A stretch of DNA of 64,000 bases, from NCBI RefSeq assembly GCF_041248615.1, contig NZ_CP158426.1; one strand, written 5' to 3'. This DNA comes from Escherichia coli. Its GTDB lineage: Bacteria; Pseudomonadota; Gammaproteobacteria; Enterobacterales; Enterobacteriaceae. Position 1 is the first letter of the stretch. Each line of letters begins with the position of its first letter. Positions 2,673-51,926 of this stretch are shown here, piece by piece. A program made the position numbers and the translations under genes. The notes beneath the pieces are model-generated. The model was given only the letters and a program-made list of their open reading frames with translations, had not been told where the DNA came from and did no database searches.

Positions 2673-2917
2673 TGCTAACCTCATATAATCGCCATCACTT
2701 ATCAGCAAGACGTTGAACGATTGGTGTAATTAATCATACGATGAGACAAATCCTAAAGAAACTTTAGTCAAAAATCCAGCGAATTTACGAATCGTCTCCA
2801 GTGAATAATTCAATCTTTTGACCTGAAATAGATATTTGAAAACTGGAATTTGCGAGGCGGGTAATTAGACACTACTTTACAGGTAATTTACCCTATAAAT
2901 ATGAGGGATAAAAATAT

Positions 2918-2926
2918 TGTGCACGG
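2918..2926. repeat. Left copy of 9-bp target-site duplication TGTGCACGG flanking IS1
   Basis: Exact 9-mer directly abuts the IS1 left end and is repeated at 3695..3703. Confidence 0.9.
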
Positions 2927-2981
2927 GGTGATGCTGCCAACTTACTGATTTAGTGTATGATGGTGTTTTTGAGGTGCTCCA

Positions 2982-3257
2982 GTGGCTTCTGTTTCTATCA
3001 GCTGTCCCTCCTGTTCAGCTACTGACGGGGTGGTGCGTAACGGCAAAAGCACCGCCGGACATCAGCGCTATCTCTGCTCTCACTGCCGTAAAACATGGCA
3101 ACTGCAGTTCACTTACACCGCTTCTCAACCCGGTACGCACCAGAAAATCATTGATATGGCCATGAATGGCGTTGGATGCCGGGCAACCGCCCGCATTATG
3201 GGCGTTGGCCTCAACACGATTTTCCGCCATTTAAAAAACTCAGGCCGCAGTCGGTAA
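2982..3257 (+). CDS. insA: IS1 InsA (transposition repressor / N-terminal part of the transposase)
   Basis: 91-aa [42 protein letters not shown]... characteristic of IS1 InsA. Confidence 0.95.
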
Positions 3258-50844: not shown

Positions 50845-50911
50845 TCGCCAGCAAAAATAACTGGTTACCTTTAATCCGTTACGGATGAAAATTACGCAAC
50901 CAGTTCATTTT

Positions 50912-50960
50912 TCTCAACGTAACACTTTACAGCGGCGCGTCATTTGATATGATGCGCCCC
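50912..50960 (+). promoter_or_regulatory. tyrT promoter (-35 TTTACA 50926..50931, -10 TATGAT 50948..50953, GC-rich discriminator)
   Basis: Classic sequence TCTCAACGTAACACTTTACAGCGGCGCGTCATTTGATATGATGCGCCCCGCTTCCCG read directly upstream of the first tRNA-Tyr. Confidence 0.9.
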
Positions 50961-51003
50961 GCTTCCCGATAAGGGAGCAGGCCAGTAAAAAGCATTACCC
51001 CGT

Positions 51004-51088
<85 letters not shown>

Positions 51089-51122
51089 TCTCAAGCATTA
51101 CCTCAAAATTTGAATTACCCCT

Positions 51123-51207
<85 letters not shown>

Positions 51208-51742
51208 TCACTTTCAAAAGTCCCTGAACTCTCAAACGAATCCGTAATTAAATATTCTGCCCAAGCGGGGAAGGATGAGAAGCTTCGACCAAGGTTCGAC
51301 TTGAGCGCCAGCGAGAGAGCGTGGCCGCAGGCAACGACCCGAAGGGCGAAGCGCGCAGCGCTGAGTAATCCTTCCCCCACCACCATAACTTTCAAAAGCC
51401 CCGGAATTCTCAAACGAATCCGCAATCAAATATTCTGCCCATGCGGGGAAGGATGAGAAGCTTCAACCAAGGTTCGACTTGAGCGCCAGCGAGAGAGCGT
51501 TGCCGCAGGCAACGACCCGAAGGGCGAAGCGCGCAGCGCTGAGTAATCCTTCTCCCACCACCATCACTTTTCAAAAGTCCGTGAACTCTCAAACGAATCC
51601 GCAATTAAATATTCTGCCCATGCGGGGAAGGATGAGAAGCTTCGACCAAGGTGCGACTCGAGCGCCAGCGAGAAAGCGTTGCCGCAGGCAACGACCCGAA
51701 GGGTGAAGCGCGCAGCGCTGAGTAATCCTTCCCCCACCACCA
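51208..51742 (+). repeat. Three tandem 178-bp repeat units distal to tyrV (rtT / tpr region)
   Basis: Units at about 51208..51385, 51386..51563 and 51564..51742, each ending in the tRNA-Tyr 3' terminal sequence AATCCTTCCCCCACCACCA; contains a protamine-like basic ORF. Confidence 0.9.
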
Positions 51743-51807
51743 TCACTTCCTGTAAATACTCAAAACCTGTTACTCCGAGCTAATTCTACCCAATGGCACC
51801 GCGTTTA

Positions 51808-51861
51808 CCGGACCTACAATATCCTCCCCTGTAGGTCGGATAAGCGAAGCGCATCCGACAA
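51808..51861. repeat. REP-like palindromic element
   Basis: CGGACCTACA...TGTAGGTCGGATAAGCGAAGCGCATCCGACA inverted-repeat structure typical of enterobacterial REP units. Confidence 0.5.
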
Positions 51862-51882
51862 CTCACCCCGTACCGTGCCCAT

Positions 51883-51906
51883 AAAAAAACCCCGCCGAAG
51901 CGGGGT
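51883..51906 (-). terminator. Intrinsic terminator after narI
   Basis: Hairpin CCCCGC-CGAA-GCGGGG followed by a T-run on the minus strand. Confidence 0.75.
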
Positions 51907-51926
51907 CTATGCAAACTAAAATTCGC

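Follow-up and report, generated by a model that had tools for sequence, protein, structure and literature searches.

The three tandem repeats at positions 51208-51742 of the Escherichia coli DNA analyzed here (the window, a stretch of 64,000 nucleotides) are the known RtT array of the tyrT-tyrV locus, which is modelled in Rfam and annotated by RefSeq PGAP. The array is an ordinary one, useful at most as a strain marker. In all probability its three RtT units form a repeated 3' trailer of the tyrT-tyrV operon, a trailer that recombination shuffles and that would be co-transcribed with the tRNAs, processed in the manner of a tRNA precursor, and ended by Rho.

RtT is the 178-bp tyrT-locus repeat reportedly described by Egan and Landy in 1978 and by Rossi et al. 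in 1981. As cited in later papers, Bosl and Kersten reportedly found in 1991 that an rtT RNA of about 171 nt is released from the tyrT transcript, and are said to have proposed that it has a modulating effect on the stringent response, that is, during amino-acid starvation. This 1991 proposal is repeated in later papers (including PMC4986893), which supply no mechanism for it. The literature found contains no base-pairing target for RtT, no sponge activity, no association with Hfq, and no later mechanistic work, and the CoCoNuTs preprint in its current version does not refer to rtT.

Identity and layout of the array

Each of the three units matches the Rfam model for RtT RNA (RF00391, gathering threshold 45 bits) along its full length (model positions 1-130, E values from 2e-28 to 2e-27). 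The scores are 128.2 bits for unit 1 (E 1.1e-27), 127.0 bits for unit 2, and 131.2 bits for unit 3 (E 2e-28). Furthermore, from purU to narI (50846-51926) the sequence matches that of the E. coli NRZ14408 chromosome (NZ_LT599825.1) at 100% identity, and for this chromosome the RefSeq annotation gives purU, two consecutive tRNA-Tyr genes, three features called 'RtT sRNA, processed from tyrT transcript', and convergent narI. Between purU and narI of NRZ14408 there are only RtT and tRNA features, with no mobility gene or cargo. The initial annotation of this DNA had already placed the repeats in the tyrT-tyrV trailer and had described their ends as copies of the tRNA-Tyr 3' end. Both points are confirmed, and the name given to such repeats by Rfam and RefSeq is RtT RNA, 'processed from tyrT transcript'. 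The features of the locus are as follows.

50926-50953, + strand: tyrT promoter, consisting of TTTACA, a 16-nt spacer, and TATGAT, followed by a GC-rich stretch (consensus scan, 10 of 12 matches, TG extension)
51004-51088, + strand: tRNA-Tyr (GTA), tyrT (ARAGORN; Rfam tRNA model, 53.4 bits; RefSeq)
51089-51122, + strand: inter-tRNA spacer of 34 bp, which together with the following tRNA makes up a 119-bp tRNA module
51123-51207, + strand: tRNA-Tyr (GTA), tyrV, identical to tyrT (ARAGORN; Rfam; RefSeq)
51208-51385, + strand: RtT unit 1, 178 bp; leader 51208-51266 (C/G ratio 2.8), core 51267-51385; exact 19-mer end
51386-51563, + strand: RtT unit 2, 178 bp; leader 51386-51444, core 51445-51563; 19-mer with a C-to-T change
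51564-51742, + strand: RtT unit 3, 179 bp; leader 51564-51623, core 51624-51742; exact 19-mer end
51743-51748, + strand: TCACTT, the opening 6 nt of a further unit (sequence; the Tandem Repeats Finder array ends at 51748)
51887-51908, - strand: intrinsic terminator of the convergent narGHJI operon, a 9-bp stem followed by a T-run

When the units are delimited by cutting after each CCA, their outer borders fall exactly on the coordinates from which three tandem repeats had been reported, and their head-to-tail order and near-identity (93-95%) are likewise borne out. The reported unit length of 178 bp holds for units 1 and 2 but not for unit 3, whose extra base is one T within its leading T-run. 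Tandem Repeats Finder describes a single array at 51189-51748 with a period of 178, 3.1 copies, 93% matches, no indels, and a score of 1006, and a separate repeat search of the window returned three copies with 94-95% identity. The first unit begins at the base next to the CCA of tyrV. After the CCA of each unit the trailer reads TCACTT, or nearly so (TAACTT after unit 1), which repeats the trailer of tRNA-Tyr itself. Because TCACTT is retained after unit 3 as well, the fractional tenth in the count of 3.1 copies is explained.

Units 1 and 2 differ at 10 positions, and unit 3 is set apart by a one-base insertion together with 8 substitutions relative to unit 1 and 10 relative to unit 2. The AAG/ATG difference quoted in the initial annotation, CCCAAGCGGGG in unit 1 versus CCCATGCGGGG in units 2 and 3, is correct. 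The 19-mer at the end of tRNA-Tyr, AATCCTTCCCCCACCACCA, has five occurrences in the window when at most two mismatches are allowed, with none expected from shuffled sequences; two of these lie in the tRNAs and one closes each RtT unit. An exact copy had been claimed for every unit, and this is so for units 1 and 3, but unit 2 ends in AATCCTTCTCCCACCACCA, which is one mismatch (C to T) away from the tRNA-Tyr 19-mer.

Operon context and transcription

The promoter at 50926-50953 has the same sequence as lhm-T2, a primer for the K-12 tyrT promoter given in PMC2887954, and tyrT and tyrV share the tyrT promoter (PMC2887954). According to a published table, tyrT-tyrV-tpr is transcribed as one polycistronic RNA, which builds up together with its spacers in cells with defective RNase E (PMC3082872). 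The 34/35-bp spacer found here precedes every second or later tRNA-Tyr gene in K-12, M37H, and the other E. coli loci compared.

No intrinsic terminator was found on the + strand between 50800 and 52000. The only good terminator at the locus is the minus-strand one that serves narI, and since it offers no T-run on the + strand, read-through from tyrT is unlikely to be stopped there. Between the array and this terminator lies a REP-like palindrome, CTGTAGGTCGGATAAGCGAAGCGCATCCGACAAC (51826-51862), the sole copy in the window, to which the IS621 insertion found at this locus in strain H152 may be related. On the minus strand, ORFs of 60-65 codons with TTG or GTG starts repeat along with the units (51232-51746) and are regarded as mechanical. 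Also, a 2024 preprint describes a putative sRNA antisense to tRNA-Tyr for which tpr, the small reading frame discussed below, is a predicted target (PMC11623569).

A conserved RNA fold in the core

Each unit is composed of a C-rich, G-poor leader of about 59 nt and a structured core of about 119 nt, with C/G ratios of 2.4-2.8 in the leaders and about 0.9 in the cores. The predicted fold of the core is closed by a 10-bp helix between GGGGAAGGAU at the 5' end and AUCCUUCCCC close to the 3' end; past the helix, 8 nt (CACCACCA) stay single-stranded as a tail. In unit 2 the helix is one base longer and the tail is 7 nt. The z-scores of the predicted folds range from -2.3 to -3.7 (unit 1, -3.2; unit 3, -3.65). 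As 10 of the 19 mimic nucleotides pair with the 5' end of the core in these predictions, the 19-mer would lie outside any tRNA-like cloverleaf.

Covariation among 149 distinct cores points to the same structure. In this set 96.4% of cells are paired and 10 of 28 pairs have changed on both sides; none of 500 shuffles reaches the observed score, and slid alignments are only 45-52% paired. The predicted folds of the window units share the closing helix of the family. The C-to-T change of unit 2 converts one G-C pair of this helix to G-U. A lineage-specific C-to-T variant of the tRNA-Tyr end also falls in the closing helix, and in 13 sequences it is offset by a G-to-A change on the RtT 5' strand, which turns G-C into A-U. 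A pair compensated in this way shows that the RNA fold is under selection. Inside the core the helices hardly vary and thus provide no means of choosing between the long-range pairings proposed by Rfam and by RNAalifold.

The RtT tail follows the local tRNA

Searching one genome per species with the core motif, from which the 19-mer had been excluded, returned 116 loci. Using nhmmer, 230 cores were located in 110 of these loci, essentially all in Enterobacterales, so that the core of about 119 nt is present in about 110 Enterobacterales species. Wherever a locus includes upstream sequence, the core stands 52-61 nt after tRNA-Tyr or after another RtT, with one exception, which follows tRNA-Gln.

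The last 12 nt of RtT equal the end of the local tRNA-Tyr in 134 of 144 units, and this agreement extends over three forms of the tRNA end.

tRNA-Tyr end CCCCCACCACCA: 94 matching RtT units at 56 loci
tRNA-Tyr end CCCCCGCCACCA: 23 matching RtT units at 14 loci
tRNA-Tyr end CTCCCACCACCA: 17 matching RtT units at 8 loci

In both lineages with a tRNA-Tyr end unlike that of E. coli, no RtT end is discordant, and a lineage-specific A-to-G change in the tRNA is followed by the RtT tail at a single-stranded position. The exceptional tRNA-Gln case comes from a Cellvibrionaceae metagenome-assembled genome (L056, about 2800-3054), in which tRNA-Gln is followed after 58 nt by an RtT-like core whose final 19 nt, AATCCTTCCACCCCAGCCA, reproduce the 3' end of that tRNA-Gln exactly. 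A core that copies the end of tRNA-Gln suggests that the element adopts the end of whichever tRNA precedes it.

Gene conversion, selection, or the two together can account for the agreement of the mimic with the tRNA, and gene conversion by itself could suffice without any functional need. Tail tracking at a single-stranded position fits gene conversion and selection alike and does not discriminate between them. It is quite unlikely that the identity of the RtT tail with the 3' strand of the tRNA-Tyr acceptor is kept for a function as opposed to gene conversion alone. If the identity were functional, one reading is that the released RNA, or the repeats while still in the precursor, compete as decoys for factors that recognize the tRNA-Tyr 3' end, namely 3' exonucleases, the CCA-adding enzyme, or RelA and the ribosome in sensing uncharged tRNA, and an alternative is that the tail base-pairs with the acceptor 5' strand of pre-tRNA-Tyr and so adjusts how that precursor matures. 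In either case copy number (0-8) would set the dose.

Copy number and architecture within E. coli

The proposal that repeat number varies among strains and can serve as a strain marker is upheld by complete genomes, which carry 0-8 RtT units and 1-4 tRNA-Tyr genes among those sampled. The census drew a systematic sample of 60 rows from 5,425 matching complete-genome records, with 1500-bp flanks on each side; shorter flanks (404 + 408 bp) could not join inserts longer than 906 bp. The annotated RtT copies in the 60-row sample were distributed as listed.

0 copies: 1 record
1 copy: 8 records
2 copies: 12 records
3 copies: 14 records
4 copies: 10 records
5 copies: 1 record
6 copies: 1 record
8 copies: 2 records

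Three further sampled loci carry insertions of IS4 or IS621, and 8 of the 60 records were not joined across the locus; one of the latter was fetched (CFT073) and holds a 7-gene island. Inserts of 738-739 bp, the length found in the window, occur in 5 of the 60 records. A query with the 121-nt junction of tRNA, 34-bp spacer, and tRNA matched 5418 of 5426 genomes, a count that is non-discriminating because the search joins separate pieces. Individual architectures, written with T for a tRNA module and R for an RtT module, are as follows.

Window (NRZ14408): T-T-R-R-R
K-12 type: T-R-T-R-R-R
CFT073: T-T-R, then a 7-gene island
IR53017: T-T, no RtT
Br_167_kylling: T-T-T-R-R-R
PEC011: T-T-Rx5
LR-21-1: T-R-R-R-T-R-R-R
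M171-1: T-Rx3-T-Rx5
M37H: T-R-T-R-R-R-T-R-R-R-T-R
O157:H7: T-R-T-R-R

The spacer between the tRNAs of the K-12 type (L002, 1345-1553) measures 209 bp and consists of a 175-nt RtT variant plus the same 34 bp. The window spacer lacks this 175-nt variant, and thus the inter-tRNA copy of RtT is missing from the window strain. With architecture frequencies inferred from insert lengths in the 60-row sample, the sampled E. coli genomes divide about evenly between the 34-bp and 209-bp forms. RtT of the 175-nt type and RtT of the 178-nt type have a common core and unrelated leaders. In these arrangements the array behaves as modules of two exchangeable kinds, one for the tRNA (119 bp) and one for RtT (175-179 bp), which unequal recombination shuffles, and they back the earlier suggestion that copy number changes through recombination. 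IR53017 is without any RtT, and RtT must therefore be dispensable, at least in that strain.

Several individual loci are of separate interest. M37H (L004, 1501-3358) combines four tRNA-Tyr genes and eight RtT units in a higher-order repeat, and Br_167_kylling (L005, 404-726) has three consecutive tRNA-Tyr genes, which alters the dosage of tRNA-Tyr genes. In CFT073 (L003, 10898-17779) a cluster of seven genes sits between a single RtT and narI, beginning 16 bp past the RtT CCA. It encodes an acyl-CoA desaturase, a member of the sterol desaturase family, a PAP2 phosphatase, an F390 synthetase-related protein, an MBL-fold hydrolase, an epimerase/dehydratase, and a KAS III-like gene product, and no integrase is annotated in the cluster. 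The five RtT units of PEC011 (L006) are found on NZ_JBRAXZ010000002.1, a 517-kb record named 'plasmid pPEC011-1' that bears ychJ-purU-tyrT-narI and is probably a mislabelled or split chromosome.

The tpr frame and other readings of the repeats

The initial annotation had stated that the units encode a short Arg-rich, protamine-like ORF. This applies to unit 3 alone, and there in truncated form, but not to units 1 and 2, in which TGA follows after 9 codons.

51275-51304, + strand: tpr-frame stub of unit 1, 9 codons; TGA where K-12 has CGA, at codon 10
51453-51482, + strand: tpr-frame stub of unit 2, 9 codons (MRSFNQGST, then stop); TGA for CGA at codon 10
51632-51706, + strand: tpr-like ORF of unit 3, 24 codons, or 28 from an upstream ATG at 51620

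K-12 Tpr has 29 residues and is encoded only by the first unit after tyrV. Relative to K-12 tpr (b1229), the frame in unit 3 has the same start and the same Arg-rich reading, with 22 of its first 24 residues identical, whereas a CGA-to-TGA change ends it 5 codons earlier. With frames of 9, 9, and 24 codons versus 29 in K-12, all three window units lack the intact 29-codon frame.

That each unit is a Tpr gene whose RNA features are incidental is a reading with some points in its favor. Altman et al. reportedly described a gene for a 'protamine-like protein' (tpr) in 1981; the first unit after tyrV in K-12 holds the intact 29-codon frame, unit 3 of the window retains an Arg-rich version of 24 codons, and the tpr ATG is conserved in 119 of 149 cores. 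This ATG, however, is located inside the closing helix, which explains its conservation without coding. Of 40 E. coli units examined, just 10 retain all 29 codons (8 in the K-12 sequence, 2 as variants), and O157:H7 and M37H have no such unit; in the window, two frames end after 9 codons and the remaining one is cut short. In the wider set from Enterobacterales, 107 of 149 distinct cores reach a stop after 5 codons, and single-base indels often fall within the frame. The coding explanation is weak because the frames are broken and unconserved, and we consider it very unlikely. Judged from these alignments, the conserved entity is the RNA structure rather than the tpr ORF.

The same structure bears on the idea that the units are decayed duplicates of tRNA-Tyr, functionless and diverged in their interior. 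Units and tRNA-Tyr do have the trailer and the terminal 19 nt in common, the interior of the unit contains another short match (CTTCG...AAGGTTCG, T-arm), and the units occupy one tandem array with real tRNA genes and exchange with them. Yet the only tRNAs recognized by ARAGORN and by Rfam RF00005 are those at 51004-51088 and 51123-51207, with no cloverleaf called in the units, the resemblance outside the 19-mer lacks significance (47 of 500 shuffles reach its score), and the units have a non-cloverleaf structure of their own that has been kept, with covariation, across about 110 species, which neutral decay would not preserve. Decay from tRNA-Tyr is thus a highly improbable account, while RtT may have a distant origin in a tRNA gene. 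A more specific candidate, the unit as a tRNA-Tyr relic with a T-loop insertion, was rejected, the T-arm match having a score of 19 that the same 47 shuffles equal. Integrases often target the 3' ends of tRNA genes and leave direct repeats of about 19 bp, and the 19-bp repeats could on this ground be scars of small integrative elements that repeatedly entered the tRNA-Tyr 3' end; the 7-gene cluster of CFT073, starting so close behind an RtT CCA, lends itself to such a history. But neither the window nor CFT073 has an integrase or other mobility gene in or beside the array. The units share one length and are constant in orientation and spacing, the structured RNA is conserved at one locus across Enterobacterales, and unequal crossing-over between long homologous modules fully explains the changes in copy number. 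Repeated integration is therefore the least credible of these accounts, with hardly any probability left to it.

A model for the tyrT-tyrV trailer

The preferred reading, a repeated operon trailer made of RtT units, can be laid out in four steps. Transcription from the tyrT promoter would produce one precursor of the form tRNA-tRNA-RtT-RtT-RtT, as has been published for K-12; we infer a single precursor from the promoter at 50926-50953 and from the missing intrinsic terminator on the + strand. RNase E would then cleave the trailer and exonucleases would trim to CCA at each boundary, by analogy with tRNA maturation, releasing rtT RNAs of about 171 nt. Because the unit boundaries reproduce a tRNA 3' end plus its trailer, the enzymes of tRNA 3' maturation would be expected to act there. 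The description of the 19-mer end as a 'processing-site mimic' is plausible, and no stronger wording is warranted since the 19-mer is outside a tRNA-like fold within the unit.

Transcription may subsequently fade through Rho-dependent termination in the C-rich leaders. Both Kupper et al. in 1978 and Rossi et al. in 1981 are said to have placed Rho-dependent termination in the second unit, and such termination is consistent with the C-rich leaders and with the missing intrinsic terminator. Finally, unequal homologous recombination among the 119-bp tRNA and 175-179-bp RtT modules lets the array grow and shrink, as the comparison of strain architectures shows.

Beyond housekeeping the importance of the RtT array is small, and it can be viewed as a textbook-era curiosity of the tyrT locus. 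Its practical use is as a hypervariable marker that combines 0-8 RtT units, 1-4 tRNA-Tyr genes, and point variants, and it is also a likely trap in short-read assembly. Work on RtT function nevertheless gains a cleaner basis, namely a tpr frame that is unconserved, an RNA structure that is conserved, and a 3' end that tracks the local tRNA. Apart from its copy number and a broken small ORF, the array is like that of other strains, and the window adds nothing special to the old question of what RtT does.

Comparison with known systems

The closest counterpart is RtT (rttR) of K-12, which the window resembles in the order of the locus (purU, tyrT, tyrV, repeats, narI), in unit length, in the 19-nt tRNA-Tyr 3' end, in the match to the covariance model, and in its RefSeq annotation. 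The window units are about 95% identical to the RtT units of K-12. Unlike K-12, the window strain has no 175-nt RtT variant between tyrT and tyrV and thus has a spacer of 34 bp versus 209 bp; its unit 3 measures 179 bp, its unit 2 has a 19-mer with a C-to-T change, and none of its units keeps the full tpr frame.

A comparable RNA is 3'ETS-leuZ, an sRNA cut from the trailer of the polycistronic tRNA precursor glyW-cysT-leuZ. RtT differs from it in being tandemly repeated and in ending with a copy of a tRNA 3' end, and both operons are listed as RNase E-dependent in PMC3082872. Arrc20 and Arrc21 of Actinobacillus pleuropneumoniae, a member of the Pasteurellaceae, are RtT-family RNAs that were detected by northern blot near tRNA-Asn and tRNA-Lys (PMC4986893). 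They belong to the same Rfam family as the window units and likewise lie beside tRNA genes, but their tRNA partners differ from the tRNA-Tyr that precedes the array described here.
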